A stretch of DNA of 64,000 bases from Acidimicrobiaceae bacterium (GTDB taxonomy: Bacteria > Actinomycetota > Acidimicrobiia > Acidimicrobiales > RAAP-2). Numbering within the stretch: position 1 is the first letter of the stretch; each line of letters starts with the position of its first letter. Made by a program: the position numbers and the translations under genes. The stretch lies in contig DAIEHI010000167.1 in the NCBI GenBank assembly GCA_027355725.1, forward strand, positions 7,711-71,710, given 5' to 3'. Of this stretch, positions 14,980 through 53,362 are shown piece after piece. The notes under the pieces were generated by a model. That model did not search any database and was not told the origin of the DNA. It was given only the letters and a program-made list of their open reading frames with translations.

Positions 14980-16186
14980 CGAGTCCCTCCAAAATATGTC
15001 CCATGCGCTCGCGCTTTGTTCGCAAGTACTCGATATTGAATTCCGTAGGAAGACTCTCGAGCGCGACCCGTTCAACGATGTTGAGGCCGAATCCCTCGAG
15101 GCCACCATACTTCGAAGGATTATTGGTCATGAGGCGCATGTTTGTAACGCCCAAGTCCACGAGGATCTGCGCCCCGATGCCGTACTCGCGTGAATCAACC
15201 GGTAGGCCCAGTTCGAGGTTCGCATCCACTGTGTCGTGGCCGTTCTCTTGAAGGGCGTAAGCACGGATTTTGTGGCCCAGACCTATGCCGCGACCTTCGT
15301 GACCGCGTAGATACACGACCACGCCCGCGCCTTCCGCGGCAATCTTGGCAAGTGCGGTGTGTAACTGGGGTCCGCAGTCGCAGCGCAGCGACCCTAACGC
15401 GTCGCCCGTCAAACACTCCGAATGCACCCGCACGAGCACGTCCTTGGCCTGGCTGATATCCCCATAGACGAGGGCCATGTGCTGTTCGCCGTCCAGCACA
15501 TTTTCAAAGACCAATGCTTGGAAGTTGCCGAATTCGGTTGGCAGTGACGCCTCGGCGATTCGCCGCACCAACTTCTCGTGGTGTCGACGGTAGCGAATCA
15601 AGTCCGCGATTGTCACGATGGGCAGCGAGTGCTTGGCAGCGAACGCTTCAAGCTCGGGTAGCCGAGCCATATCGGACTTGTCAGCGGTGACGATCTCACA
15701 AAGGACGCCAGAAGGATATTTTCCAGCGAGTCGACACAGGTCTACGGTTGCTTCGGTGTGTCCAGCTCGCTTCAACACACCGCCCGGGCGATATCGCAAG
15801 GGAAAGATGTGACCAGGTCGATTGAGGTCGCTCGCACGGGTGGCGGGGTCGATCAATGCGCGTACCGTGGCCGCGCGGTCGCTCGCCGAGATACCCGTTG
15901 TCGTGCCGTGTCGATAGTCGACGGTGACCGTAAAGGCAGTGCGCTGCGCTTCGGTATTAGCCACCACCATGAGCGGTAGGTCGAGCTCGTCGGCGCGCTG
16001 GGACTCGAGGGGCACACAAAAGACGCCGGATGTGTACTCGAGGAAGAACGCCATACTCTCGGCGGTCACATCCTCGGCGGCCATGATCAAGTCGCCCTCG
16101 TTCTCACGATCCTCGTCATCGACAACAACGACCATCCCGCCCTTACGCAGTTGATCGAGTGCTTCTTCAATTGTTGACAGCGTCAT
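14963..16186 (-). CDS. ribBA: Bifunctional DHBP synthase / GTP cyclohydrolase II
   Basis: DDEDRENEGD, RAGHTEA, RVHSECLTGD, CDCG, EGRGIG. Confidence 0.97.
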   Translation of the reverse strand: MTLSTIEEALDQLRKGGMVVVVDDEDRENEGDLIMAAEDVTAESMAFFLEYTSGVFCVPLESQRADELDLPLMVVANTEAQRTAFTVTVDYRHGTTTGISASDRAATVRALIDPATRASDLNRPGHIFPLRYRPGGVLKRAGHTEATVDLCRLAGKYPSGVLCEIVTADKSDMARLPELEAFAAKHSLPIVTIADLIRYRRHHEKLVRRIAEASLPTEFGNFQALVFENVLDGEQHMALVYGDISQAKDVLVRVHSECLTGDALGSLRCDCGPQLHTALAKIAAEGAGVVVYLRGHEGRGIGLGHKIRAYALQENGHDTVDANLELGLPVDSREYGIGAQILVDLGVTNMRLMTNNPSKYGGLEGFGLNIVERVALESLPTEFNIEYLRTKRERMGHILEGLDDVDE

Positions 16187-17175
16187 CAGACCTCCACGTC
16201 CACCCTTACATCTTCGCCGATTCTCTTCACATCCACCACTCGACCTCGACGAAGCTCACCAATCGATGCCGTAGAGAGGTCCTTGAGCGCCCCAGACGTT
16301 GCCCACGAACCAGCGAATGCGGGCGCTTGATACCACACGACGTGATTCACGAGACCGTGTTCCAAGAACGCGCTGGCGGTAGTTGGGCCACCTTCGACGA
16401 GAACCTGAAGTACGTCGAGTTGTGCTAACTCATCCAAGATCACACCGAGGTCACCACTCCTCTCCAGGCACGGTCTCACTTTCGCGTGTTCGGGTGCACT
16501 GCCAAGGACCACACGAAGTGGCTCGAGGATTATGTCATCGAGTCGCGCGGTGAGTGCGGGGTCGTCCCTTCGAACGGTGCCGGCACCAACGACAATGGCC
16601 TGACTCGAGGCGCGCAGGACATGAGCGTCACGACGGGCCTCTTCTCCCGTAATCCACTGACTCGAGCCATCGGCCATCGCAACGATGCCATCGAGGGTCG
16701 AGGCGATCTTCAAGATGACGTACGGTCTGCCCGTTACGCGATGCCAGAGATAGGGCGCCAGTTGCGCTCGCACCGCTGCTTCTTGCACGCCAACCTCAAC
16801 GTCGACCCCCGATGCCTTGAGCGACATCACTCCCCTGCCCGAGACGCGCGCGTCGGGATCAAGGGTTCCAACGACGACTCGACGGATGCCAGCCTCCACG
16901 ATCGCATCCACGCATGGACCCGTTCGTCCAACGTGACAACACGGCTCAAGCGTCACCACCATCGTGGCGCCCCGCGCGCGTTCGCCGGCACGACGAAGCG
17001 CCTCTATTTCAGCGTGGGATTCGCCCGGCGCCTGAGTGTGCCCTTCGCCCACGACCACGCCGTCGTCATTGACAATCACCGCGCCCACCCACGGGTTGGG
17101 CGGTGCGTGAAGTCGTGCCTTCTGCGCGGCGCCGATGGCGAGCTCCATGAGCTCAGAGGGACCCGGCCTGGTCAC
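16186..17175 (-). CDS. ribD: Riboflavin biosynthesis deaminase/reductase
   Basis: PNPWVG, HAE, TLEPCCH.GRTGPC, SQWITG, VEGG. Confidence 0.95.
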   Translation of the reverse strand: MTRPGPSELMELAIGAAQKARLHAPPNPWVGAVIVNDDGVVVGEGHTQAPGESHAEIEALRRAGERARGATMVVTLEPCCHVGRTGPCVDAIVEAGIRRVVVGTLDPDARVSGRGVMSLKASGVDVEVGVQEAAVRAQLAPYLWHRVTGRPYVILKIASTLDGIVAMADGSSQWITGEEARRDAHVLRASSQAIVVGAGTVRRDDPALTARLDDIILEPLRVVLGSAPEHAKVRPCLERSGDLGVILDELAQLDVLQVLVEGGPTTASAFLEHGLVNHVVWYQAPAFAGSWATSGALKDLSTASIGELRRGRVVDVKRIGEDVRVDVEV

Positions 17176-33833: not shown

Positions 33834-34760
33834 CTAACTACGCTCGAACATGTTCGCCGTCGAACTCTTACGAGATGTGGGCGCGATGACCTCCAACTCG
33901 TTTCGATGCGTAATTCGATCGATGACCCCACTGAGGGACCCCTCTGCGTTGATGGCGCGACGAATGATGATGCCAAGAACCGGCGCCGCCCAGAAGTCGC
34001 CACACACCCACAGGATCGCCCCGCCAATCTGCTGATCGGCGAACGCGGGAAAACTGACACCGGGGATGTGCTGATACACCGAATACCAACTCACGTTCGT
34101 GAGAATGCTCATCGACATTGCGAGAAATGTCATGACAACGTTGGTACCGAGAATCGCACCCACTTGCCAGACTGCGCTCTTACGTGGCTTCATTGGATAG
34201 GAGCGCAGGAATTGGAGCCAGAACAGTACGCCGGTGAAGAAGAAGCTTCCGTGCATCAAGAAGATGTGAACAAAGTTGTTGCGCTCTGACAGATCAAACC
34301 ACGATGGAATGTGCCACACGAGCATGGCCGCGTTGAACGACAACAATGCCACCCACGGATTCCTCAGTATCCGACCGAGCACTCGGAATCCTCCCGCTTT
34401 GGGGTTCAAATAGAAGAAACGACCCAACGAACGACGAACCCTCACCGGCAACGCGAACTGCAACGGAATCCACGGAGCGCCCGCCACGACCAGTGCAGGT
34501 GCCGCCAGCGAGATCAAGAGATGTTCGACCATGTGCACCGAGAAGTAACTCGATGACCAGTAGTCAATGGGTGACTCGATCGCAAGCAACAACACGAACA
34601 AGCCCGCGTAGAATATCCACGACCGTCGCCGACGCTCACGTACCCGCGACTCGCGAGAGCGCTCCTTCAATCTTCGAAGCCCGAGCTCGTGACACGCGAC
34701 CGTGAGAATGATCCCAATCAGGGCGGGGTCGAACGACCAGTGGTCAAAGACGTAACTCAC
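33834..34760 (-). CDS. Cytochrome c oxidase assembly factor, caa3-type CtaG family
   Basis: SPID..S..FSVHMVEHLL...AP, WHIP, H..MH, DQQIGGAILW; GTG 34760 with GAGGA. Confidence 0.88.
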   Translation of the reverse strand: MSYVFDHWSFDPALIGIILTVACHELGLRRLKERSRESRVRERRRRSWIFYAGLFVLLLAIESPIDYWSSSYFSVHMVEHLLISLAAPALVVAGAPWIPLQFALPVRVRRSLGRFFYLNPKAGGFRVLGRILRNPWVALLSFNAAMLVWHIPSWFDLSERNNFVHIFLMHGSFFFTGVLFWLQFLRSYPMKPRKSAVWQVGAILGTNVVMTFLAMSMSILTNVSWYSVYQHIPGVSFPAFADQQIGGAILWVCGDFWAAPVLGIIIRRAINAEGSLSGVIDRITHRNELEVIAPTSRKSSTANMFERS

Positions 34761-34874
34761 CGACGTCCTCGGGCTCTGGCTCGACGAGCGTGATTTGGTG
34801 CGATTCGAGAGCGCGGAGCATGGCGACCACTTCTGTTCTCTCCCCACGCATGAACACTCAGCCTATCTTCGCGT

Positions 34875-35267: not shown

Positions 35268-35420
35268 CGGCTCACATTACCGCGACGAATGGCGGATCTG
35301 CAGGAAAATTGCATCGTCTTTCGACGAGCATGAGCCACATCGTGTCACTCGCACGAGGAACAGGCCTACTTCGCCGTGGGACCAGTAGAGTTGCATCCAA
35401 CCAAGGGAGCAAGTCGATCG

Positions 35421-36284
35421 ATGACGACCAATGAAGACGGAGCGCTTGCCCCGGAATCTCGACTGTCAGAAGCAGACCGTGCCGCCGCGTTCGTAAAACA
35501 TCAACCTGCAGACCGCGCCGCGGCCTTTCGTGCGGGCCGCGCACCAGTTCCAACCAAGTTCATTGTCTGGATGACTGCGGTGTTCGTTGTACTGGGCCTC
35601 GGCGGCGTCGTTCTAGAGCACTACTTCGGCTCTATCGGAGTCACCACAACCACAACAACGGTCTTCAAGCTCCCAGCGACTCCAAATAGCCCTTCGGGAC
35701 CGCAAATCAGTGCTTCGCTACCCGCGCTCATGGGACTCAAGTACATCGGACACGCCACGGCACCGAACTTCACGCTGGTCAATCAGAACGGCAAGAAATG
35801 GGGGCTAGCTGACGCCCGAGGCAAGGCAGTCGTGCTGGCCTTCGAGGACGCGACGTGCAACGACATTTGTCCTGTCCTGGGGGCAGAAATCAAGCAAGCC
35901 CAGCAGAGACTTGGCGTGAAAGCACAACGGGTCGTCTTTGCGATCGTCAACAGCGACCCCAAGCGCACTGCAGTCGTGCCACGACCACCAGTTCTCACGA
36001 TCCCGGGGCTCTCAAGACTCCACAACATCTATTTCTTGACTTCGAAGTTGAGTCGCCTCAATAACGTCTGGTCCAATTACGGCATCAGCATTCGGGTTGG
36101 CGCCACTGCCAACCAGGTCGCGCACAACAACATCATGTATTTCATTAGCCCCAAAGGTCAACTGACGGCCCTCGCCACACCTTTCGCTAATGAGAGCACC
36201 AAAGGTGTCTTCTCGCTCAGTGCTTCAGATATCGCACACTTCGCGCAGGGAATCGCGAACACGGCCAGTAGTCTTGTCAAATGA
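35421..36284 (+). CDS. SCO family copper chaperone
   Basis: TM anchor, APNFTLVNQNG, CNDICP (CxxxC), distal His (VAHNN). Confidence 0.88.
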   Translation: MTTNEDGALAPESRLSEADRAAAFVKHQPADRAAAFRAGRAPVPTKFIVWMTAVFVVLGLGGVVLEHYFGSIGVTTTTTTVFKLPATPNSPSGPQISASLPALMGLKYIGHATAPNFTLVNQNGKKWGLADARGKAVVLAFEDATCNDICPVLGAEIKQAQQRLGVKAQRVVFAIVNSDPKRTAVVPRPPVLTIPGLSRLHNIYFLTSKLSRLNNVWSNYGISIRVGATANQVAHNNIMYFISPKGQLTALATPFANESTKGVFSLSASDIAHFAQGIANTASSLVK

Positions 36285-36958
36285 TTGATCGTACGGCACC
36301 ACTCGAATCACCCTCGTACGACCCGGGATCGATGTCTGCTTCATCGCTTTCCTCGATGAAAGTCGTCCTCTACAGACGACCGTGGTTCCTGATCACAGTG
36401 GCCGTCATTGTGGTACTCGCTGTATCGATCATTAGCGACCTTCCTCACCCCATCACGAAGGCTGAGGACGCCACGGCACAGAACGCATCGATGAAACAAA
36501 TCAATACCGACATCGGTCCTTGCGTCTTTGCGGTGAAGGAAGCGTTCAGCTTTTACCAACAAGACGTCAGTGGCAAGCTTTCTTCGTCGAACCTTGCTCA
36601 AGTACCGAGTTTGCTCGTTGGCGACCAGACTGCGTGCTCGTTCACCAGCGGTTCGATCTATGACCTCACGAACAATATTCAAGTGCTCGATACCAAAGCG
36701 GGAAAGAATATCGACCACATGCTGAGTGTCGTGGTCTTGTGGAGCACCTCAGATGCACTCGCGGCGATTGAAGACATCCAGTACCTCTTCAATCACCCTG
36801 GCGACAAGAAGAAGCTTCAGAACCTTTCACGCGAGGAAGGTCTCTTAACCAAGGACCGCACGCTGGCCCTCAACTACGTGGCGCGGGCAGAGAAGATTCT
36901 CGGCATCAACCTGAAACAGCCAATAATGCCCGTGCTGGCTCGCTTGTCGGGAACTTGA
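36281..36958 (+). CDS. Membrane-anchored hypothetical protein
   Basis: ATGA overlap with the SCO gene; one N-terminal TM; helical exported domain with two Cys. Confidence 0.7.
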   Translation: MIDRTAPLESPSYDPGSMSASSLSSMKVVLYRRPWFLITVAVIVVLAVSIISDLPHPITKAEDATAQNASMKQINTDIGPCVFAVKEAFSFYQQDVSGKLSSSNLAQVPSLLVGDQTACSFTSGSIYDLTNNIQVLDTKAGKNIDHMLSVVVLWSTSDALAAIEDIQYLFNHPGDKKKLQNLSREEGLLTKDRTLALNYVARAEKILGINLKQPIMPVLARLSGT

Positions 36959-37011
36959 ACTTAGTAGCGTTGCCAGGCTTCTCGATTCCCACCTTGAACA
37001 GCCACTCACGC

Positions 37012-37045
37012 CTCCACTCAGACGTTCAACATTCAATGAGTGGAG
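37012..37045. terminator. Stem-loop between convergent genes
   Basis: CTCCACTCA-N16-TGAGTGGAG. Confidence 0.45.
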
Positions 37046-37064
37046 TGCCTAAGTCGCACCACTC

Positions 37065-37892
37065 TCACTGAGGCAAGTTACGCTCCGAGGTGCCCAAAGC
37101 ACGCTCACGACGCAACATAGATCCCAATTCAGCGTTCGGGTCCTCCTCACTCTGAAGCCAATGGATCAGATTCCAAAAGACCACGGGCAAGAACGTCGCC
37201 GCCGACGACACCCACATCAGCACCGCTGTCAGCTGCTGGTCAGCCCAGAGTGAGAGGCCAGTTCCCACGTGATGAAACGATCCATACCAAGGGTCGTGCG
37301 ACATCGCATTCAGATAGGCAACGATCCACACCGTCCACATTGAAATCGCGGTCATAGCGATTCGAAATGGCCTCGTAATGCCAGGACTCACGGGCGGTGA
37401 TTCAACGAGGTCGAGCCACAGCAGACTCCCCACGGCGACCAGGCTCAAAGACTCCGGCACCAGCATCCATGCGTGACGGTTCGTGTAATCAACAATTGGT
37501 GCCACTCGCCAAAAAATAGCGACGACCAGGTAACACACGAGCAACGTCACCGCACCAATATGGCTGGTAACCCCTCGCCTCGCACTGGCGAAGCGGTCCA
37601 TCACTCGAAACTCAACGGGCGAAACGATCTTGCCGTCCGGGTCAACTTCAAAATCTTCGCGCGCCGCCAGGCCCAAGAAACGCCATGGCGCACTCACCAC
37701 CAACAACGCAGGAATAACGAATGCAAAAAGCGAAAACTGAGTGGCCTGCATGAATTCAAAATGATGTGCCCAACCAGAAATCGGAGGGATAACCAGCAGA
37801 ATCCAACAACCGACGCCGAAAATTCCTAGGGCGTTCCTTCGTCGACGCACTTCGTGCGTCGACGAACGGCGCTCAGCTGTACCCGCCGTCAC
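37065..37892 (-). CDS. Divergent caa3-CtaG paralog lacking the conserved His residues
   Basis: Same TM layout and W.Y...DQQL...MW end as the 33834 gene; GTG 37892 overlaps the preceding stop. Confidence 0.75.
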   Translation of the reverse strand: MTAGTAERRSSTHEVRRRRNALGIFGVGCWILLVIPPISGWAHHFEFMQATQFSLFAFVIPALLVVSAPWRFLGLAAREDFEVDPDGKIVSPVEFRVMDRFASARRGVTSHIGAVTLLVCYLVVAIFWRVAPIVDYTNRHAWMLVPESLSLVAVGSLLWLDLVESPPVSPGITRPFRIAMTAISMWTVWIVAYLNAMSHDPWYGSFHHVGTGLSLWADQQLTAVLMWVSSAATFLPVVFWNLIHWLQSEEDPNAELGSMLRRERALGTSERNLPQ

Positions 37893-38005
37893 TCTGATGG
37901 GTGACGCTGGAAAAAGCCCCACAACAGAACACCGAATAGAACACCCAGCAGGAGCACCATCGTCAGCACCTGCGAACCAATGTAAAGATCGACTGCTTGC
38001 ATCAT
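37889..38005 (-). CDS. 38-aa single-TM peptide (candidate small oxidase subunit)
   Basis: GGAGG RBS; MMQAVDLYIGSQVLTMVLLLGVLFGVLLWGFFQRHPSE; GTGA overlap with next gene. Confidence 0.7.
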   Translation of the reverse strand: MMQAVDLYIGSQVLTMVLLLGVLFGVLLWGFFQRHPSE

Positions 38006-38069
38006 CACCTCCATCCTCAACCCTAAAGTACAAACACCAGGGACGACAAGCGCCCCATGACACGAACAA

Positions 38070-38726
38070 CTACAAGATGTAGAACAATGCCAAGAACAGG
38101 GCACCACTCAGTGCGACGAAACCCCAGAAATATGTCATCGAGGCGACGTTTGCACGAAATAGTCGTGCCGTGGCAACAGACGAGAGCTCGGGATTATCTT
38201 TGCCAAGCTCCTTGCGCATCCGCATAGAGCGAGCCACTGTGGTCTCAAGCCAGTAGACACCCACCACCAGTGTCGCGATGTTGATGACTACCCAACCGAT
38301 GAACGTCGATGAGTAACCACTGGCACCTGGGTAGAACGGCAACGTCGTCGTCTCCCAGATTTGCAGGAACAGCGCTACGAGCGATGTCAGCACACCGGTC
38401 CACACTGCAACTTGCCAGTCGAGAACTACGCCCTTTCGCAAGCGCCACTGCCCATAGATCGCAAGCACGGCCGTCAGCGCTTCGAGCGCAAAGATCGACC
38501 ATCCGAACGCCGTGGGAGCGGTCATGTTGTGGGGCCGCCACTGCAGACCACTATTTGCAGTGCGCAGGTAGAAGTATGCGAACGCGAGTGCCGCGAGCAA
38601 GAAGGTGTACATGCCAATGAACAATCGTCCACCTGACCACACCGATCCGACCTTGGCGCGCAACTCGTACTCAATCTCCTCGGGCGTCTCTGTGTAGCCC
38701 TTGGACTTGTTGTACATATCAGTCAT
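38070..38726 (-). CDS. Heme-copper oxidase subunit III-like
   Basis: LFI...AYFYLR...W.P, FLQIWE, Y.STF; about 5 TM; follows subunit I. Confidence 0.8.
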   Translation of the reverse strand: MTDMYNKSKGYTETPEEIEYELRAKVGSVWSGGRLFIGMYTFLLAALAFAYFYLRTANSGLQWRPHNMTAPTAFGWSIFALEALTAVLAIYGQWRLRKGVVLDWQVAVWTGVLTSLVALFLQIWETTTLPFYPGASGYSSTFIGWVVINIATLVVGVYWLETTVARSMRMRKELGKDNPELSSVATARLFRANVASMTYFWGFVALSGALFLALFYIL

Positions 38727-38746
38727 AGTAAATTCTCCACTTACTA

Positions 38747-40711
38747 CTAGGCCGGGCTACTGCCGGATGTTGTTGAAACGACGGGTGGTGCACTGGTGCC
38801 CAAGTCCGCAACCGGCGGGGCGCCAACTTCGCTGTAGTGATACGGGTCACTCATAACCACTGGAATTCGCTCGAAGTTGTACTCAGGAATCGGGCTCGCC
38901 GTCTGCCATTCAAGTCCGAGCGAGTCCCACGGGTTCGCTGGCGCCTTCACGGGCTTGATGTACATCGAGTACATCAAGTTCGCGAAGAACAACAGGAATG
39001 AAGCACCGAGCAGGAATGCGCTGATCGACGAGAAGTCGTTCAAGCCCTGCAGGTTCTTCGCGTAGGTGAACACACGTCGCGGCTGTCCGAGCAGACCAAT
39101 GATGAACATCGGGAAGAACGTGAGGTTGAAGAAGATGAACATGGTCCAGAAGTGCCAAAGGCCAATCTTCTTGTTCATCATGCGACCGGTCATCTTAGGC
39201 AGCCAGTAGTACAGTCCCGCCATGAACGCGAAGAGCAGTCCACCCATGATCGTGTAGTGGAAGTGCGACAGCACGAAGAACCCACCGTGCACAGTCACGT
39301 TCACCGGTACGTCTGACAAGAACACTCCCGTCACACCGCCGATGAGGAAGTTGAAGAACAACGCCATCGCAAAGAGCATGGGTATCTCAAAGCGAATCTT
39401 TGCCCTATAGAGCGTTCCCATGCCGACCAAGAAGATGAAACCCGTTGGAATGGAAATCAATTCCGTGGTGAGCATGAACAAAGGTCGCATGTCTGGGTTA
39501 ATGCCACTCTGGAAGAGGTGGTGCTGCCACACGAAGAACGACAGCAACGCCACGCCGATCATGCCTGAAGCTGCAACCTTGTACGCAAAGAGAGGTTTGC
39601 GGGTAAAGACCGGTAGAATTTCAGCAACGATACCGAATCCAGGCAGCGCCATGATGTACACCTCGGGGTGGCCGAAGAACCAGAACAGGTTCTCCCACAG
39701 GTACGAACTACCGCCGTGTTCTGACACGTAGAACGCCGTCTGCGCTGTCTTGTCCAAGATACCGAACAAGCCCGCTGCGAACAAAGTCGGCGTTGCCAAC
39801 GTCAAGAGAGCAGCGGTAGCGAGGATCGACCACACGAAGATCGGAACTCGGCTCCAAGTCATGCCCGGAGCCCTGTTGTTGATGATGGTCACCGCAATGT
39901 TGAAGCCTGCTGCCATCATGCCCATTCCAATAACCGCGAAACCGAAGAGGTACGAGATCATTCCAGGGCCCGCTTGAGTCTGAAGCGGTGCATAGCCCGT
40001 CCAACCAGTCGGGAACCCGCCGTATGGAAGCGCTGAGAAGATAACCGCGTAACCCGCAACGAAGATCCAGAAGCTGAACGCCTCAATGCGTGGGAATGCC
40101 ATCTTTCGTGAACCGATCATCAACGGTACGAAGTAGTTGCCCATCGGACCAACGATGATTGACGTCGCCATCATCATCATGATGGTGCCGTGCTCACTGA
40201 CGATCTCGATATAGGTGCCCGGTCCGAACAGGTGTGTCGTCGGACTCAGCAGTTCTGCTCGAATGGCCATTGCGAGAAGTCCACCGGTGAACATGAACAA
40301 GAGCACACCCACTACGTACTGCAGGCCCACAACCTTGTGGTCAAGCGTGTAGCGGAAGTACTTCGACCATCCCTCGACGGTAGGCTCCTGCTTCGGCTCG
40401 CGACCGAGGAGCTTCGCGAAGGGGTAGTTCAGGGCCCCAATTCCCAACAGCCAACCAACGACTGCGAAGAGCAGTGCGAAGAAGTTGGCCGCCGAGTTCT
40501 GTCCCGAGTTCTGGACGTAGGCGTAGTTGCCAGTGATTGCGTTGCCCAGCCAGTGTCCGAAGAGGTAGCCAACGATGCCAAGGACAATCGCTGTTCCTAG
40601 GTGCTGACTCATCCAGCCTGGACGCTGTGTCCAGCCAACCCTTCCCGACTGCATGGGAGGAGTTGCGCTACTGGCCGCAACTTCTGTCGGTCGTTCGGCG
40701 CTTATAGTCAT
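38747..40711 (-). CDS. ctaD: Heme-copper oxidase subunit I (A-family-like, N-terminally extended, atypical proton channels)
   Basis: DHKVVG, HGTIM, GWTGYAPL, WFFGHPEVY, VWQHH, SHFHY, QPRR; six metal-ligand His present. Confidence 0.96.
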   Translation of the reverse strand: MTISAERPTEVAASSATPPMQSGRVGWTQRPGWMSQHLGTAIVLGIVGYLFGHWLGNAITGNYAYVQNSGQNSAANFFALLFAVVGWLLGIGALNYPFAKLLGREPKQEPTVEGWSKYFRYTLDHKVVGLQYVVGVLLFMFTGGLLAMAIRAELLSPTTHLFGPGTYIEIVSEHGTIMMMMATSIIVGPMGNYFVPLMIGSRKMAFPRIEAFSFWIFVAGYAVIFSALPYGGFPTGWTGYAPLQTQAGPGMISYLFGFAVIGMGMMAAGFNIAVTIINNRAPGMTWSRVPIFVWSILATAALLTLATPTLFAAGLFGILDKTAQTAFYVSEHGGSSYLWENLFWFFGHPEVYIMALPGFGIVAEILPVFTRKPLFAYKVAASGMIGVALLSFFVWQHHLFQSGINPDMRPLFMLTTELISIPTGFIFLVGMGTLYRAKIRFEIPMLFAMALFFNFLIGGVTGVFLSDVPVNVTVHGGFFVLSHFHYTIMGGLLFAFMAGLYYWLPKMTGRMMNKKIGLWHFWTMFIFFNLTFFPMFIIGLLGQPRRVFTYAKNLQGLNDFSSISAFLLGASFLLFFANLMYSMYIKPVKAPANPWDSLGLEWQTASPIPEYNFERIPVVMSDPYHYSEVGAPPVADLGTSAPPVVSTTSGSSPA

Positions 40712-40769: not shown

Positions 40770-41762
40770 TCATGATGTGGGCTGCTTTGCGCCGTAGGTC
40801 TCGACCTGGCTGTAAGGAGTCACGTTGCCGTCGATGTAGTAACCACCGGCCGCACCGTTCGCGTCAGGTACGTAGGTCCAAGCGAATGGAGGCAGGTTCT
40901 TCGTGTTCGCAGCGTTCGCCGCCTCGGTCGAGGTAGCCCAGTTCTGGAAGTCACTCGGAGTGACGACCTTGCCGTAGTTGAACATCGCTCCGTGCCAGAT
41001 ACCGCAGAGCTCACTGCATCGAACTGTGAAGTTGCCCAACTGATCGGTCTTGGCGTATGCCACGTCGTTCTGCTGAGGATTGGCATCGGCCTTCACGCTC
41101 AACTGATACGCCCAGAAACTGTGGATCACGTCGAGTGAGGTCACGTTGAACGCAATTTCAGTGTTGTTGGGGATGATCAACTTGGGTGACTCGAACCCAC
41201 CGAACTGAGGGTAACGGTAGGTGAACTGCCACTGCTGTCCGATGACCTGGACCACGAGGACTTGGTTGCTGCCCGGTGTCCACGACGCAGACGACGTGAG
41301 CGCAGCTGTCTCAGCCTTGGCAGACCCAGCGGGCATCCATACCGGGTTGGGGCCTTCGCCACCACCCGAGCCCTTGCCACCAATGAGGGCAACCGTACCG
41401 AAACCTGCGAGGAACAGAACGATCACCGACGTCACAACTATCCATGACACCTGTGCCTTCAGGTTCCCGCGAGCTGCTGGACCACCAATCGGTTCCGGTA
41501 CACCTGCGCGCTTGGCGCTCCAGTTGACGATTGCGTATCCCATGTAGACCCACACACCGATGAGCACCGGAAAGGCCATCAAGAACAACACGTTGAAGTC
41601 GAACTGGTTCGCTCGTGCGGTGTCGGTCATGGTCCCTGGCGGCACGTGAGGTGCGATCCAGAACATGAACAGCAGGTCAGCGGCTACCGACAGGATGATC
41701 CAAATCGTGGCCATCCGACGAAGGTGATGTGTCTCTTTTTTCATTGAATTCTCCGTGGACAT
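40770..41762 (-). CDS. ctaC: Heme-copper oxidase subunit II with CuA site
   Basis: 2 TM, GQQWQFTYRY, DVIHSFW, CSELCGIWHGAM. Confidence 0.94.
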   Translation of the reverse strand: MSTENSMKKETHHLRRMATIWIILSVAADLLFMFWIAPHVPPGTMTDTARANQFDFNVLFLMAFPVLIGVWVYMGYAIVNWSAKRAGVPEPIGGPAARGNLKAQVSWIVVTSVIVLFLAGFGTVALIGGKGSGGGEGPNPVWMPAGSAKAETAALTSSASWTPGSNQVLVVQVIGQQWQFTYRYPQFGGFESPKLIIPNNTEIAFNVTSLDVIHSFWAYQLSVKADANPQQNDVAYAKTDQLGNFTVRCSELCGIWHGAMFNYGKVVTPSDFQNWATSTEAANAANTKNLPPFAWTYVPDANGAAGGYYIDGNVTPYSQVETYGAKQPTS

Positions 41763-41764
41763 AA

Positions 41765-42448
41765 TTAGCGAACCACCTCAAGGAATCCACCCATGTAGTT
41801 CTGGGTAGACATACCGCCACCGTTGCCGTAGAGGTAGCCCAAGCCGCATGGCACAAAGCACTGCCATCGGTAACTACCTGCGGCACCCGTGCGGAAACTG
41901 AACGTCACCGTTCGGTGAGGCTGATTGACGTGACACGGTGCGACGCCACACAGCGTCGCGTTGCCGTTCACGCCCGCCAGAGGTACGTAGACACCGAGTG
42001 ACGGGACCGCGAATGTGTGGCCAACACCATCACCGGTGTTCGAGTTGTAGTTCGAGAAACTCGTGCCGTCAAGCGTTGCCTTGCCGTTCGTGGTACCAAG
42101 CACTTGGCCAAGCTGCTGATTACGCAGTGGGCTACCACTGTCGTAGTTGTAGATGGTCATGTTGATCGTGGTATTGGCCGGAAGCTTCCACGTGGTGTCC
42201 TGCACCCACTTACCGGTTGTCGGGTCCTTCACCAGGTACGACACCCACGTTGGGTGGGGGCCGAAGCCAATCGATCCCACGGTCTGGGCCGTTATGTTCA
42301 CGGCCTGTCCCGGCGCGTGCGTCTTGGTGAAGTCCATAACACCTCCAGGTGTGCCTGGTGTCAAGAACGCCGCAACGCTCCAGACAATCAGACCAACCGC
42401 AACCAAGAAGAGCCCGAGAACCGTCGCCAGTCTCCCTCTCATTGACAT
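41765..42448 (-). CDS. Membrane-anchored cupredoxin-like protein with non-canonical ligand loop
   Basis: AAGGAG RBS; N-terminal TM; LPANTTINMTIYNYD, GHTF, GSYRWQCFVPCG...GGGM.....M. Confidence 0.8.
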   Translation of the reverse strand: MSMRGRLATVLGLFLVAVGLIVWSVAAFLTPGTPGGVMDFTKTHAPGQAVNITAQTVGSIGFGPHPTWVSYLVKDPTTGKWVQDTTWKLPANTTINMTIYNYDSGSPLRNQQLGQVLGTTNGKATLDGTSFSNYNSNTGDGVGHTFAVPSLGVYVPLAGVNGNATLCGVAPCHVNQPHRTVTFSFRTGAAGSYRWQCFVPCGLGYLYGNGGGMSTQNYMGGFLEVVR

Positions 42449-42527
42449 ACACCACTCCTTGCGATTCACTGTCCCTTAATGAACTCAGGTACGAATGTAA
42501 CGGAACGGTTCACTAAAGTTAAGGTTT

Positions 42528-42887: not shown

Positions 42888-44606
42888 TCAGTGGACGCCC
42901 TCGAGTGAGAGGAGCGCCTTCAGTTCACTCACCGCCGACGAGGTCCCCGACGCCGAAGCGATGGGGTCATCAGGCACGATCCAGTGGGTGCGCGCCGAGG
43001 GCGTGATGATAAACATCAGGTCAGAGTGAACGCTCATCTTGTCTGTTGGTTTCATGCTGACCGACACCCCGAAATTACGCCACACAGTGCGAACCTTTGC
43101 CAGTTGGCCGGTCACGAAGTAGAAATTCCTCACATTGTCCAAGCCGTGCTGCTTCATGAAATGGCGCACATCCGCCAATGTCTCATGGTACGGATCTGCT
43201 GCTACCGCGACGATGTCCAGGTTCGCGTTGAGCGAGAGCTGTGATCGAAGTTGCGCTAGTTGGTTGGCCAGTAATGGGCAGTCTGTCCAGCAATGCGGAT
43301 CAAGGAAGGTCAAGAGCGTGACGCGACCTTTGTGTTCGCCCAATGTGAAGGGCCGACCATACTGATTGGTCAGGGTGAAGGTCTTTGCCGGGAGATCAAC
43401 GGCTGACGCTGAGCCGTTTTGGGCAAGAAAGAGCGTGTTTTCAGCGCTGGCTGACGTGGCGAGCCCCATCGAGACCGCGGCGAAGATCAACATAGATGAC
43501 GCAAAGGTGGCGACCACCGCGCTCGTGGCACTCGTCAGTTCTCGTGGCATGTATCGCTGTGTCAGAGCGGTCTCTTCTCTCGGAGCGGCACACCAGGCGA
43601 GAAGCGCCAAGGGGATGAGCGAGTTCACGTCGGTGGCGACGCCGCCAAAGATGGCGGTGTCTTCGCCAATGACCCAAAAGACCACAGCGCCAGCAATCAA
43701 GGTCCACACGGGCCAGCGCCATGCGCGACTTCGCGCCATCCATAGTCCCACTGCGCTCACCATGAGCCACAAGATCACGATGATGTTGAATCCACCGCCC
43801 ATCGTCGCTGCGATTGATCCTCCACCGCGCACGATTGCCGCCAACCAGTGCGGCTGGGCGATGGCACTCATGGAACGCGTCATCTGAGCGAGCGCGTTGG
43901 TGGGTCCACCGTGCCAGAATTCAGTCGACGGCAACGCTTGAAGAAACGCACCAATCACCAGCAGCACGCTCAGTGTCCTCAGCGTCAGACGAGAGAACAA
44001 CGCGAGGAATTGGCGTTGTTCGAGCGACAACGCAATTCCCGCAATGACGTAGAAGAAGGTTGCGCCCGGCCACCCAAAAAGAAGTGACGCCCCCGAGATG
44101 AAAACACCACCCGCACCGTTACCAACGAGCCAGATCAGTCCAGCCCAGGCAGCCGAGACGGCCCCGGCGATTCGACTGGTGCGACCGCGGGCCACCAGGA
44201 TCACCAGTCCGAGACCAATCTGAAACCACGCGACACCGACCGCGAGGGTGATTGGATGGCTGTTCCACACCGAGATGCCGTGCAACATCAGCGCGTGGAG
44301 CCACGATGGCGTCCCCACTGCTGCGGGAGCGACAACATTGTTCGCGAGCCCAAGCGGCATTGAAGGCTGGAACTGCAGGATCCCGTCAATAAGCCACAGC
44401 ACACCGAATGACCAGCGTAAGTACGTACGAGATCGCGGTTCGCTTATGTCCTCGGGCGCAAGGTTGAAGGCGAAAATCCGCCGCGTCGACATAAGGAGGG
44501 CGAGCAGAACAATCGCAATCCCCCCCACCCAAAGAATGCTGGTGACGTAGAGCGCGTGATGGAAGATTGCGATGATATTGGCCAAATCGAGGGGCCGTCG
44601 ACTCAT
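42888..44606 (-). CDS. Polytopic membrane protein fused to a C-terminal SCO domain
   Basis: About 10 TM with an internal duplication; FTLTNQYG, FLDPHCWTDCP, SVHSD. Confidence 0.85.
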   Translation of the reverse strand: MSRRPLDLANIIAIFHHALYVTSILWVGGIAIVLLALLMSTRRIFAFNLAPEDISEPRSRTYLRWSFGVLWLIDGILQFQPSMPLGLANNVVAPAAVGTPSWLHALMLHGISVWNSHPITLAVGVAWFQIGLGLVILVARGRTSRIAGAVSAAWAGLIWLVGNGAGGVFISGASLLFGWPGATFFYVIAGIALSLEQRQFLALFSRLTLRTLSVLLVIGAFLQALPSTEFWHGGPTNALAQMTRSMSAIAQPHWLAAIVRGGGSIAATMGGGFNIIVILWLMVSAVGLWMARSRAWRWPVWTLIAGAVVFWVIGEDTAIFGGVATDVNSLIPLALLAWCAAPREETALTQRYMPRELTSATSAVVATFASSMLIFAAVSMGLATSASAENTLFLAQNGSASAVDLPAKTFTLTNQYGRPFTLGEHKGRVTLLTFLDPHCWTDCPLLANQLAQLRSQLSLNANLDIVAVAADPYHETLADVRHFMKQHGLDNVRNFYFVTGQLAKVRTVWRNFGVSVSMKPTDKMSVHSDLMFIITPSARTHWIVPDDPIASASGTSSAVSELKALLSLEGVH

Positions 44607-51315: not shown

Positions 51316-52595
51316 TCGACAACCATGAGATGCAGTTCTCGCTTCCCGCGCCGTACCACGAGATACCGGTCGTGCAGCGTGCGCGTCAGGTCTATGGATT
51401 CACCTTCTTCAAGGCGCACATTGTTCACGTACACGCCACCTTGGGCCATGAATCGACGCCCCTCGCCCTTGGACTTGGCGAGCCCGCACCGAACCAGGAG
51501 TTCCACCGGATCAACGCCCTCGGCGAGCTCGGACCTCGACCAAGTCGATGACGGTGCGTCAGCCACAACCTGCAGCAGTGTCACCTCATCCAATTCAGCG
51601 ATCGCCTCATTGAAGAGCGCTTCGCCTGCGCGCTGCGCGTGCGCAGCGGCTCGTTCACCGTGCACGAAACTCACAACGGCGTTCGCCAGCGCACGCTGGG
51701 CGAGACGTTCTTGGGGTTTGGCGAGCGTTGCCTCGTCGAGGTCAGTGATGACATCGTGGTCAAGGAAGGTGAAATAGCGCAGCGACGCCGAGACCGTGGC
51801 GTCTTCGGTGTTGAGCAAGAACTGGTGGAGCGCGAACGGGGACGTCAACTCGGGGTCAAGCCACACCCGATCATTGCCACCTTCGGACTTGCCGAACTTT
51901 TGACCATCCGCGCGAAGTAGCAATGGCGAGGTGACGCCGTGCACCACTCGTCCGGTCACCCTGCGCACGAGTTCGGTGCCCATGGTGATGTTCCCCCATT
52001 GGTCAGAGCCGCCTAACTGAAGCGAGCAGTCATGGTCCTCGGCGAGCCGCAAGAAGTCGTAGGCCTGCATAAGCATGTACGTGAACTCGGTGAAGGAGAG
52101 ACCAACGTCCTCTCGGTCTAGCCGGCTCTTCACCGATTCCTTAGCGATCATCTGGTTCACGGTGAAGTGCTTGCCGACGTCGCGCAAGAAGTCGGTCAGC
52201 GAAATCGTGGTCAACCAGTCAGCGTTGTTGAGAAGCAACGCACGAGACGATCCCGCTTCGGGCGTGAAGTCGAGGTATTTCGATAGTTGTGAGCCAATCC
52301 CCTCGATGTTCTGTGCCAACTTCTCAGTCGTGAGAAGGGGACGCTCCGCGGCTTTGAAGCTCGGGTCGCCCACCAGTCCAGTGCCGCCGCCAGCCAGTGC
52401 GATTGGACGATTCCCGGCCAGCTGGAGTCTGCGCAGCAGACATATCTGCATGAGGCTTCCAAGGTGCAGGGAGGGCGCGGTTGGATCAAATCCGATGTAG
52501 GCAGTGACCCCACCACCACTCAACCGATCGAGAATGGCCTCGTCGGTCGTTTGGTGGACCAAACCACGAAACTGCCAATCTGCGCGTAGATTCAT
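51312..52595 (-). CDS. tyrS: Tyrosine--tRNA ligase
   Basis: YIGFDPTAPSLHLG, GGSDQWGNI, KFGKS, C-terminal S4 domain. Confidence 0.97.
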   Translation of the reverse strand: MNLRADWQFRGLVHQTTDEAILDRLSGGGVTAYIGFDPTAPSLHLGSLMQICLLRRLQLAGNRPIALAGGGTGLVGDPSFKAAERPLLTTEKLAQNIEGIGSQLSKYLDFTPEAGSSRALLLNNADWLTTISLTDFLRDVGKHFTVNQMIAKESVKSRLDREDVGLSFTEFTYMLMQAYDFLRLAEDHDCSLQLGGSDQWGNITMGTELVRRVTGRVVHGVTSPLLLRADGQKFGKSEGGNDRVWLDPELTSPFALHQFLLNTEDATVSASLRYFTFLDHDVITDLDEATLAKPQERLAQRALANAVVSFVHGERAAAHAQRAGEALFNEAIAELDEVTLLQVVADAPSSTWSRSELAEGVDPVELLVRCGLAKSKGEGRRFMAQGGVYVNNVRLEEGESIDLTRTLHDRYLVVRRGKRELHLMVVE

Positions 52596-52621
52596 GGGCC
52601 AAGTCTACGAGAACGACTCGA

Positions 52622-53362
52622 CTACAAGAGTGCGTACGAAGGCATGTGCACCTGGAGCCACACGACGAATGAGTTCCACGCCCCAGTGACCTCAGCGATG
52701 CCGATGAGTATCAGCAACACACCGCCGATCAGACCAATGATGCGCGCGTGGCGTCGCAACCACGTTGAGACGCCCTTCATCCATTCGGTGGCGATCGCCG
52801 CGATGACGAATGGCACGCCTAAGCCCAGGCAATATACGAACGCCAAGACTGAACCGCGAACGGCCGTCGCGCCCGACGACGAAGCAGCGAGGCCCAGTAT
52901 CGAGCCCAACGTTGGTCCAATGCACGGCGTCCATCCCAGCGCGAACGTGAAGCCGAGCACCGCAGCGCCCACCACGGTCACTCGCGGCAAGCGGTGTATG
53001 CGTCGTTCGCGTTGAAGCCACCCTGAAGGAAAGAAACCAGCGAAGAACATTCCCAGCATGATCGTGAGGACCCCAAAGATCACGTCGAGCATCCGCTCGT
53101 GGGAGCGAAGGGTGCTCCCAAGTCCTCCAAAGAGTGCGCCGAAACTGACGAAGACGAGCGCGAAACCCAAGATGAAGGCCAGAGAGCCAGCGACCGCCCT
53201 CCCCCGCCCAGTACGTGCTTCGACCTGACCCGACGCGCCACCGAGAAATGCGAGGTATCCGGGCAGTAGCGGCAGTACACACGGCGAGACGAATGACACA
53301 AGGCCCGCGGCGAAGGCCAGTGGAAACGCGGCAATCAAAGACACCGGGAGTGTCGCTACCAT
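52622..53362 (-). CDS. ccdA: Cytochrome c biogenesis / thiol-redox membrane protein CcdA
   Basis: SFVSPCVLPLLPGYL, GWTPCIGP. Confidence 0.92.
   Translation of the reverse strand: MVATLPVSLIAAFPLAFAAGLVSFVSPCVLPLLPGYLAFLGGASGQVEARTGRGRAVAGSLAFILGFALVFVSFGALFGGLGSTLRSHERMLDVIFGVLTIMLGMFFAGFFPSGWLQRERRIHRLPRVTVVGAAVLGFTFALGWTPCIGPTLGSILGLAASSSGATAVRGSVLAFVYCLGLGVPFVIAAIATEWMKGVSTWLRRHARIIGLIGGVLLILIGIAEVTGAWNSFVVWLQVHMPSYALL

Follow-up and report, generated by a model that had tools for sequence, protein, structure and literature searches.

The roles of D132, N139 and K362 (R. sphaeroides numbering) underpin models of proton pumping by cytochrome oxidase, and the evidence for them comes almost entirely from engineered mutants of three model enzymes. 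In R. sphaeroides, N139D alone uncouples pumping (PMC7196763). The D132N/N139D double mutant regains full pumping, as PMC7196763 relates from Branden 2006; N139D rescues proton uptake in D132N and D132A according to PMC3840923, where D135N of E. coli bo3 is also described as rescued by a second-site Asp at position 139 or 142 (Garcia-Horsman 1995).

A natural group of oxidases that lack the K-channel Lys has been catalogued as the '2TM Chloroflexi & Actinobacteria' subclade, for which the K-channel loss, including a Gln in subunit II, is already tabulated (Degli Esposti 2021; PMC8239418 supplement, Suppl. Tables S1/S7; preprint 10.1101/2020.03.01.968255). Acidithrix ferrooxidans, Acidimicrobium ferrooxidans and Acidimicrobiaceae USS-CCA1 are listed in it (PMC8239418), and the D-channel is described as 'essentially conserved' or showing 'no significant change' (PMC8239418; 10.1101/2020.03.01.968255). 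According to a published table, the evocell classifier assigns the subclade to type A2 (PMC8239418). Among acidophilic Fe(II)-oxidising Proteobacteria (Acidithiobacillus, Acidiferrobacter), K354 (P. denitrificans numbering) is likewise exchanged for a hydrophobic residue and the entry Glu of COX2 is replaced (10.1101/2020.03.01.968255).

An A-family oxidase operon with its own assembly genes

The window analyzed here is a 64,000-nucleotide stretch of a contig from an Acidimicrobiaceae bacterium. It encodes an A-family heme-copper oxidase subunit I (P0001), and both this ORF and the whole operon around it, with its own assembly genes, are intact. The features are as follows.

33834..34847, minus strand: second caa3-CtaG gene, part of the assembly kit beside the operon
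35376..36284, plus strand: SCO1 gene, part of the same assembly kit
37065..38069, minus strand: divergent caa3-type CtaG-like gene (PF09678, 1.5e-19), the start of the ORF being doubtful
38070..38726, minus strand: 218-aa membrane protein, at the place of subunit III in the operon
38747..40711, minus strand: ctaD-like gene for subunit I (P0001, 654 aa; PF00115)
40352..40711, minus strand: N-terminal extension of P0001, ~120 aa, with two extra TM helices in the AF2 model
40770..41762, minus strand: subunit II, its CuA site (CSELCGIWHGAM) intact, without a cytochrome c domain (profile search)
41765..42469, minus strand: cupredoxin-like gene with a membrane anchor, next to subunit II on its upstream side, listed for context
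42888..44606, minus strand: SCO1/SenC joined to a polytopic membrane domain, closing the cluster on its upstream side (profile search)

Profile search matched P0001 to PF00115 at 1.2e-127, and HMMER placed the mycobacterial CtaD proteins as its best solved relatives (1e-119), with A-type PDB matches ranging from 1e-88 to 1e-120. The AF2 model (pLDDT 89) matches R. sphaeroides aa3 with a TM score of 0.9, and the top 50 Foldseek matches are all A-type (TMt ~0.9). The two extra helices, at aa 38-60 and 73-91, precede canonical helix I; the extension that holds them is covered by the alignments of relatives (100% query coverage). All six His ligands of heme a, heme a3 and CuB are present (H174, in an invariant column of the alignment, H348, H397, H398, H483 and H485), as are the heme-propionate Arg pair and the cross-link Tyr of helix VI (Tyr-I; Y352, Y280 in P. 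denitrificans). The six His, Tyr-I and the overall sequence and fold are those of the A family in Table 2 of PMC3084760, and the A1-type marker, a helix VI Glu in a GHPEV motif, is found at E350 (E278 in P. denitrificans).

Compared with canonical A1 aa3 oxidases (P. denitrificans 1AR1, R. sphaeroides 1M56/2GSM, mycobacterial CtaD 8HCR/6ADQ), P0001 shares the fold (TM 0.9, rmsd 1.2-2.1 Å) at 34-40% sequence identity, together with the six His, the cross-link Tyr, the helix VI Glu, the Arg pair and the CuA of subunit II. It differs by its two extra helices and by the replacement of D132, N139, S201, K362, S299, D412 and the subunit II Glu. The traits of the 2TM subclade, by comparison, are all there: two extra N-terminal TM helices, HPEVY, no K-channel Lys and a caa3_CtaG in the cluster. 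The published row for Acidithrix ferrooxidans and USS-CCA1 is identical to P0001 at every mapped position (Y, A, I, T, V, E and the COX2 Gln; PMC8239418). P0001 is a member of this subclade, with no difference in kind found. Neither the cupredoxin-like protein nor the 218-aa protein matched anything in Pfam or NCBIfam, COX3 profiles included for the latter.

Comparison of P0001 with its relatives gave a dN/dS of 0.03-0.13 over the 654 codons; the gene is under purifying selection, and these values reject a pseudogene or drift. It is not the sole oxidase of the cell, a reading that we rejected because most of 24 congeners additionally hold a fully canonical ctaD and the host assembly (85.6% complete) holds a canonical ctaE-qcrC-qcrA cluster, on contig C101, and cytochrome bd. 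A PF00116 search of the genome returned the window copy as the only match; the canonical ctaD and ctaC probably fall in assembly gaps. In this actinobacterium of acid habitats, P0001 serves as catalytic subunit of an additional respiratory oxidase that is well conserved and stands alongside a canonical bcc-aa3 branch and cytochrome bd.

A proposed shift of the entry carboxylate within the D-channel

Residues were mapped in a MAFFT alignment of P0001 with 121 cluster representatives, among them a reference (P0207) that carries the P. denitrificans numbering without any offset (D124, N131, E278, K354, T351, S291). A preliminary description of the window had claimed that both canonical proton channels of the oxidase are rewired. 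All the motifs it quoted were located, those of subunit I in the minus-strand ORF 38747-40711 and KAQVSW in subunit II, and alignment to R. sphaeroides and P. denitrificans numbering by HMMER and MAFFT left the substitutions standing, with no canonical residue restored. Seen again in 80 named genomes and throughout the 120 protein clusters nearest to P0001, they are neither chance nor sequencing quirks. The D-channel residues concerned are as follows.

40103..40105, minus strand: K203, at the entry Asp site (D132 in R. sphaeroides, D124 in P. denitrificans)
40082..40084, minus strand: E210, at the gate Asn site (N139 in R. sphaeroides, N131 in P. denitrificans), the proposed relocated entry carboxylate
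39662..39664, minus strand: E350, the helix VI Glu (E286 in R. sphaeroides) at the top of the channel, retained in GHPEVY

K203 and E210 lie in GSRKMAFPRIEA (aa 200-211; window 40079-40114), which HMMER pairs, as 'igsrkMAFPRieA', with mycobacterial 'igapdvAFPRlnA' (E ~1e-120). The entry Asp to Lys and gate Asn to Glu changes, with HPEVY (aa 348-352) kept, are therefore as first described. Across the 120 nearest clusters and 80 loci, position 132 is Arg in most, otherwise Lys or Gln, and never Asp; position 139 is Glu wherever the motif is readable; and GHPEVY is present in P0001 and all 120 clusters. The 132/139 swap is thus invariant in ~200 relatives. Wherever the alignment has Glu139, position 132 is non-acidic and in most cases Arg or Lys, and none of the ~440 proteins examined combines D132 with E139. 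One sister lineage (G131) has R132, Q139 and D207, and its carboxylate therefore sits on the facing gate Asn.

Of the eight residues that define the D-channel, P0001 retains five. N192, N271, Y132 and S213 correspond to Asn113, Asn199, Tyr35 and Ser134 of P. denitrificans, and the equivalents of N121, N207, S142, Y33 and E286 are invariant across the clade. The upper serines S197, S200 and S201 have become Ile, Gly and Met, the last being M265 (Ser193 in P. denitrificans). The claim that both channels are rewired holds, then, in that each channel, like the Mg site, has had its canonical key residues exchanged, but it goes too far for the D-channel, which, with N121, N207, S142, Y33 and E286 intact, appears to be re-entered and not lost, its entry carboxylate having apparently moved from 132 to 139, seven residues inward.

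Loss of the canonical K-channel and a Glu/Ser pair on helix VIII

The K-channel and exit-side positions of P0001 map as follows.

39434..39469, minus strand: helix VIII motif TTELISIPTGFI (aa 415-426), with E417 (position 353), S420 (356), T423 (T359, kept) and I426 (replacing K362); HMMER and MAFFT
39623..39625, minus strand: A363, at the S299 site (S291 in P. denitrificans); MAFFT, in agreement with the published Acidithrix ferrooxidans row
39281..39292, minus strand: VHGG (aa 474-477), in which the Mg/Mn-site His is kept and D412 and T413 are both Gly; MAFFT

In P. denitrificans terms, Lys354 and Ser291 have become I426 and A363, while Thr351 and Tyr280 are preserved as T423 and Y352. HMMER pairs 'iptgfif' of P0001 with mycobacterial 'vptgikf' (E ~1e-120). 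The loss of the Lys, the new Glu upstream of it and the exit-side VHGG, with Gly for the Mg-site Asp, had all been read correctly from the sequence. Gly412 (G476 in P0001) is common to most lysine-less relatives that retain the helix VI Glu. In subunit II, Q104 of KAQVSW (41451-41453) stands in place of the entry Glu (E78 in P. denitrificans, E101 in R. sphaeroides), as the preliminary description had it; HMMER aligns 'lkaQvsw' with 'drlEvvw' of T. thermophilus caa3, a stretch that is weak in itself but agrees with what has been tabulated before. Clade members vary here, with Gln in 48 proteins, Glu in 10, Ser in three and Val in one: the K entry is relaxed and the subunit II position drifts.

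The Glu/Ser pair E417/S420 is conserved in the 120 nearest clusters with one exception. These are the only two columns that both lysine-less clades have in common and that are missing from K-type enzymes. The pair and K362 are mutually exclusive, with no combination of K362 and E353 among the ~440 proteins examined. When residues co-switching with E353 in both lysine-less clades were sought, only S356 passed, and therefore no partner base was identified. By helical periodicity E417 points ~100-120 degrees away from the T352/T359 face.

The residues do not follow the designs described for other families. The alternative K-channel of the B family has Thr, Ser and Tyr at the sites of K354, T351 and S291, where P0001 has Ile, Thr and Ala. 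That of the C family (cbb3) has Tyr-II on helix VII and Ser and Tyr at the T351 and S291 sites (PMC3084760); P0001 has Tyr-I, with Thr and Ala. Nor are the motifs of nitric oxide reductase present (H-x-Arom-x-E; HH-x-Arom-Arom-x17-E; no Tyr-I), P0001 having HPEVY, HHLFQ and Tyr-I; E417 follows the His pair after 19 residues, as against 21 for the helix VIII Glu of nitric oxide reductase.

The lysine-less trait of the subclade was already known; the papers on the subclade mention neither the 132/139 carboxylate shift nor the E417/S420 pair (PMC8239418; 10.1101/2020.03.01.968255). Full-text searches, mostly of literature outside subscription journals, found no paper describing the D-channel swap, nor one describing a helix VIII Glu in lysine-less A-type oxidases.

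Distribution, origins and the link to acid habitats

In the tree, the group of P0001 is sister to a protein from genome G086 (SH-aLRT 97), which matches the published M/L/V residue pattern of Acidimicrobium ferrooxidans, is almost certainly that species and carries the swap. The lysine-less oxidases of acidophilic Fe(II)-oxidising Proteobacteria share one deep lysine-less group with P0001, Acidiferrobacter branching beside the actinobacterial clade; unlike P0001, Acidiferrobacter has Thr/Leu at 132/139, Tyr at N121 and no relocated carboxylate. Archaeal lysine-less COX1-3 fusions (Thermoplasmata, Marsarchaeota, marine group II, Nitrososphaerales) share the helix VIII motif T-E-x-x-S, a hydrophobic residue at 362, Gly412 and HPEVY with P0001, but form a separate clade in which subunit I is fused to subunit III. 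At T359 most of them have Phe or Ser, and D132/N139 is retained in nearly all. One Thermoplasmataceae lineage has R132/E139, like the clade of P0001, and is nested among relatives with D/N. A single clade for the swap was rejected by the AU test (delta lnL 131, p 6e-80; the group was defined after inspection of the first tree), and with it a single origin: the swap arose independently in a Thermoplasmataceae archaeon. The 251 genomes tallied in the analysis included one unpublished genome (G250), which supports none of the conclusions drawn here.

The preliminary description considered the changes suited to a large delta-pH. The lysine-less Glu353/Ser356 design is, however, shared by archaea (marine group II Euryarchaeota, Nitrososphaerales, Hydrothermarchaeota) and by numerous families of Acidimicrobiia, among them many non-acidophilic members. 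Its presence in neutral-pH archaea and in these Acidimicrobiia led us to reject K-loss as an acid adaptation as such; a large delta-pH by itself does not explain it. An acid link is left, weakly, for the 132/139 swap only: both of its independent origins are in acid-habitat lineages, and the link therefore rests on n=2. The lysine-less acidophiles Sysuiplasma and Marsarchaeota retain D/N at these positions.

Discussion

We consider it probable that P0001 belongs to a functional, O2-reducing aa3-type oxidase of the lysine-less 2TM branch that has re-entered its D-channel and abandoned the canonical K-route. The data establish which residues are present, how they are conserved and coupled, that the swap has independent origins, that selection is purifying and that a canonical oxidase occurs alongside; the proton carriers, and any pumping, we infer. 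Proton supply would still run through the D-channel, whose middle and top are intact (N192, N271, S213, Y132, E350), the entrance carboxylate having presumably left the loop (132) for position 139 (E210), where helix III makes its first turn. The Lys or Arg at the old position 132 (K203) probably pairs with E210 or tunes it. Such an arrangement would reproduce in nature what R. sphaeroides D132N/N139D and bo3 D135N with Asp142 achieve in the laboratory, both of which regain uptake and pumping. With K362, S299 and the subunit II Glu gone, the canonical K-route is probably abandoned; an invariant Glu-Ser-Thr ladder on helix VIII (E417-S420-T423), climbing one turn per step, would rise toward the level of the active site and most likely supplies an internal protonatable group near the cross-linked Tyr.

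The likeness to the laboratory double mutants lies in the carboxylate, which is absent from 132 and stands instead at 139, the gate Asn position. The clade differs in being natural, in having Glu and not Asp at 139, in having Arg or Lys (in some Gln) and not Asn at 132, and in having also lost the K-lysine; with a base and Glu where the mutant has Asn and Asp, net charge and geometry therefore differ. Also counting against the favored reading are the uncoupling caused by N139D on its own, the Ile, Gly and Met at the upper serines and the orientation of E417 off the T352/T359 face. The earlier proposal of an alternative proton path with compensating charge swaps survives in its second half, the replacements being coupled (E139 only with a non-acidic 132, E353 never with K362). 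The alternative path was overstated, since the shift mirrors laboratory variants that keep uptake and pumping.

The strongest competitor, though we think it unlikely, is a deliberately uncoupled oxidase, in which a carboxylate in the Asn gate abolishes pumping while fast O2 reduction is kept and energy is conserved solely by scalar proton consumption. It would suit a high-potential cupredoxin donor, as when Fe(II) is oxidised in acid habitats and hardly any driving force remains. N139D/N131D/N99D and N207D are the classic uncoupling mutations (PMC7196763), and the sister lineage G131 has D207; the operon has a private cupredoxin-like gene and no cytochrome c; the swap occurs in what is almost certainly A. 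ferrooxidans, an Fe(II) oxidiser at pH 2; and coupled respiration could proceed through the other oxidases of the cell. Yet in the laboratory the uncoupling by N139D is reversed once D132 is neutralised (PMC7196763), and D132 is always replaced in this clade, while most lysine-less relatives, acidophiles such as Sysuiplasma and Marsarchaeota included, keep D/N.

That both canonical channels are dead seems to us improbable. Protons would then take a new route, such as a cbb3-like 'KC' path via serines of helices VI and VII and E364, or one through the extra helices or the divergent subunit III. Degli Esposti et al. did class these enzymes as 'KC-channel' (PMC8239418), neither D132 nor N139 is kept, S197/S200/S201 have given way to hydrophobic residues or Gly, the subunit III-like protein has no COX3 profile match, and the neighbouring Acidiferrobacter has lost D132, N139 and N121 altogether. 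An unused channel would, however, hardly explain the invariance of N121, N207, S142, Y33 and E286, or of E139 itself; positions 362, 365 and 299 are hydrophobic, and the lower K region therefore offers no polar path; and the alternative K-channel residues of B-type and C-type enzymes are absent by the criteria of Sousa 2011 (PMC3084760). A decaying redundant paralogue, its channel residues drifting beside the working canonical aa3 that congeners also hold, is scarcely credible given a dN/dS of 0.03-0.13 over 654 codons, replaced residues that are invariant over hundreds of genomes, and an intact ORF, operon and set of assembly genes.

We suggest tentatively, and as a rather doubtful extension, that the channel mouth was rebuilt alike at least twice (Acidimicrobiia, Thermoplasmataceae). 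The base at 132 might pair with the carboxylate of the Asn gate, which sits at 139 or, in one sister lineage, at 207. The resulting ion-paired proton valve could let a lysine-less A-family oxidase stay coupled, or be uncoupled in a controlled way, when the external pH is very low, and the invariant helix VIII Glu-Ser pair might be a third, undescribed solution to the K-pathway, shared by all lysine-less A-family oxidases.

This large clade, under strong purifying selection, carries as a fixed natural state the 'recoupling' double change, an acid at 139 and none at 132, along with the missing K-lysine; archaea acquired the double change in a separate event. If these enzymes pump, they would give independent support to the view that one carboxylate near the channel mouth, at any site, sets the behavior of E286; if they do not, a natural uncoupled oxidase would bear on the energetics of low-pH iron oxidation. 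The apparent presence of the swap in the culturable Acidimicrobium ferrooxidans makes pumping or uncoupling measurable. Annotation pipelines label these genes as an ordinary (even 'cbb3-type') subunit I, which hides the difference.

The oxidase cluster and the mapping of its residues

The oxidase genes are flanked by housekeeping genes (nusB, efp and aro upstream; pyrR, pyrB, pyrC and carAB downstream) and comprise the following features:

42888-44606, minus strand: membrane-SCO1 fusion
41765-42469, minus strand: cupredoxin-like gene
40770-41762, minus strand: subunit II
38747-40711, minus strand: subunit I (P0001), a 654-codon ORF
38070-38726, minus strand: 218-aa protein in the subunit III position
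37065-38069, minus strand: CtaG-like gene
beside the cluster, minus strand: second CtaG
beside the cluster, plus strand: second SCO1

Subunit I gives a PF00115 hit at 1e-127; among solved structures, mycobacterial CtaD proteins come closest (about 1e-119). The AlphaFold model (pLDDT 89, pTM 0.89) superposes on the R. sphaeroides and P. denitrificans aa3 enzymes with a target-normalised TM of 0.9 and contains two additional N-terminal helices. The GC content is 0.546 across positions 36001 to 40000, which hold the oxidase structural genes, versus about 0.60 elsewhere in the window, a dip that may stem from the codon composition of membrane proteins or from a foreign origin. The CtaG-like ORF opens with a TTG codon and 60 residues oddly rich in Arg and Cys, and its Pfam match does not begin before aa 67. 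Translation probably starts further downstream, making room for a small upstream peptide.

Residues defining A-type channels were taken from the list of Sousa et al. 2011 (PMC3084760) and mapped in a MAFFT alignment of P0001 with 121 representatives of 50%-identity clusters, one of which (P0207) provides exact P. denitrificans numbering (D124, N131, E278, Y280, K354, T351, S291). In the D-channel, D124 is replaced by K203, N131 by E210 and S193 by M265, with N113, N199, Y35, S134 and E278 retained. The K-channel has lost K354 (I426) and S291 (A363) and keeps T351 and Y280; at the Mg site the His is retained, and the Asp and the Thr are each replaced by Gly. HMMER alignment to mycobacterial CtaD gave identical equivalences. 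In subunit II, the T. thermophilus caa3 entry Glu is aligned to Q104. The motifs quoted in the preliminary description were all found where it had placed them, and both its replacements in the two channels and Mg site and its Glu-to-Gln change at the subunit II K-entry hold in these alignments.

The residue just before the CuB His pair (WQHH, aa 395-398, window positions 39518-39529) is a Gln. All of the 120 nearest clusters have it, as do the Acidimicrobium ferrooxidans-like protein of genome G086 and the protein of G131; in other A-type enzymes the residue is mostly Ala, Gly, Val or Ser.

Loss of the K-channel lysine

R. sphaeroides numbers are used from here on (132, 139, 353, 356 and 362 for K203, E210, E417, S420 and I426 of P0001). 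Degli Esposti et al. 2021 (PMC8239418) defined a COX1 subclade, '2TM Chloroflexi & Actinobacteria', characterised by two additional N-terminal helices, the absence of a K-channel, HPEVY and a caa3-CtaG in the cluster. The supplementary rows for Acidithrix ferrooxidans and Acidimicrobiaceae USS-CCA1 (Y, A, I, T, V, E, COX2 Gln) are identical to P0001 at each position mapped. The enzyme is thus a member of this known subclade, and its K-loss is already catalogued. The preliminary description inferred an alternative proton path suited to a large delta-pH. However, the same helix VIII design (T-E-x-x-S-x-P, position 362 being hydrophobic) is shared by marine group II Euryarchaeota, Nitrososphaerales, Hydrothermarchaeota, Marsarchaeota and Thermoplasmata, and by enzymes of many Acidimicrobiia families, among them A2-type ones with the Mg-site Asp retained; K-loss is not acid-specific.

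When the lysine-less clades, one bacterial and one archaeal, are compared with K-type enzymes, only two columns are found that both clades share and K-type enzymes lack: Glu353 and Ser356. Glu353 is present in nearly all lysine-less members of the two large clades and never together with Lys362 among the approximately 440 subunit I sequences gathered. With the retained T359, the pair forms a polar ladder of three-residue spacing that rises along helix VIII toward the height of the CuB ligands; below this ladder, positions 362, 365 and 299 are hydrophobic. Judging from this pattern of sequence, the Glu-Ser pair may take over the function of the lysine, and we found no description of it as a lysine substitute in the searchable literature. 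Within the enzyme's own clade the subunit II entry position varies (Q 48, E 10, S 3, V 1), a drift expected if the canonical K entry is out of use.

The D-channel carboxylate is relocated

Wherever the motif could be read, Glu occupies position 139 throughout the 120 nearest protein clusters (≥79% identity) and 80 named genomes. The latter are MAGs of Acidimicrobiaceae/Acidimicrobiales, sampled from peat bog, palsa, mine-type and soil sites, and one Ferrimicrobium MAG. Position 132 in the same set is mostly Arg, otherwise Lys or Gln, and never Asp, and the combination D132 with E139 was not seen in any sequence examined. In a wider survey (251 Acidimicrobiia genomes sampled, 20 genes fetched), the basic-132 state marks one clade (SH-aLRT 99) containing the window's group, G086 and G131. 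The G086 oxidase (59% identity) is K132/E139 and has M, L and V at positions S291, K354 and S357 of P. denitrificans, as in the published Acidimicrobium ferrooxidans row (PMC8239418). That of G131 (L116, G131:C18:4200-6800) has R132, Q139 and D207 (GARRTAFPRIQA ... LVGIDLMVT), placing the carboxylate on the gate asparagine that faces position 139, where the laboratory mutation N207D causes uncoupling.

The sister of the basic-132 clade retains D132/N139 and contains further representatives of the window's own genus and family, whose identity to the window's enzyme is no more than 41 to 43%. Some genomes thus carry this different lysine-less oxidase (L127, L131 and L134 in the same genus, L129 and L132 in the same family), and a single genus holds two separate lysine-less types. 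R132/E139 also occurs in two Thermoplasmataceae COX1-3 fusion proteins, which are nested among D/N archaeal relatives of at most 41% identity. Forcing all basic-132 sequences into a single clade, a group chosen after inspection of the first tree, costs 131 log-likelihood units (AU p 6e-80). The double change therefore arose at least twice. In the searchable literature, neither this relocation and its convergent origin nor the Glu/Ser signature appears to have been described.

Does the swapped channel conduct and pump? Of the R. sphaeroides single mutants, N139D is uncoupled in its pumping and D132N retains almost no activity, but the D132N/N139D double mutant regains full pumping (PMC7196763); in E. 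coli bo3, Asp at 139 or 142 rescues D135N (PMC3840923). The natural enzymes make the same move of the carboxylate to 139, and the rest of their channel (N121, N207, S142, Y33, E286) is invariant, from which we infer that the D-channel is probably still functional. Of the rewiring proposed in the preliminary description, the coupled and compensating nature of the swaps stands; the D-channel is probably re-entered rather than lost.

The natural enzymes differ from the pumping mutants in having Glu rather than Asp, a base rather than Asn, and hydrophobic residues or Gly in place of the serines at S197, S200 and S201, so they may or may not pump. An uncoupled oxidase is a serious rival: the operon has its own cupredoxin and no cytochrome c domain, and an Fe(II)-oxidising organism that grows at pH 2 apparently carries the variant.

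In the lysine-less oxidase of the acidophile Acidiferrobacter thiooxydans (COX1 sequences P0145 / P0285), N121 is Tyr, D132 is Thr and N139 is Leu, so the D-channel entry is absent altogether, whereas the published account describes this channel as 'essentially conserved'.

An additional oxidase

The window's assembly (85.6% complete) holds one PF00115 gene. That this is the cell's sole oxidase is ruled out: most of 24 congeners have two such genes, one fully canonical (GAPDMAFPRLNA, PTGIK, HDT) and one lysine-less, and in the window's genome there are a canonical ctaE-qcrC-qcrA cluster, located on a different contig, and a gene for cytochrome bd. The rewired enzyme is therefore an additional, specialised oxidase. 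Nor is its gene decaying, since dN/dS values of 0.03 to 0.13 indicate strong purifying selection.

In a single-contig congener (G020:C1:1175201-1176536) the canonical ctaD appears as two abutting matches (profile 2-279 and 280-436), which suggests a frameshift, possibly an assembly error. In about a dozen other Acidimicrobiales families the canonical ctaD has a far more divergent companion, another PF00115 gene (105-250 bits) roughly 4 to 5 kb away, for example G036:C27:11130-12470 with 15470-16786 and G034:C59:46518-47834 with 51416-52756.
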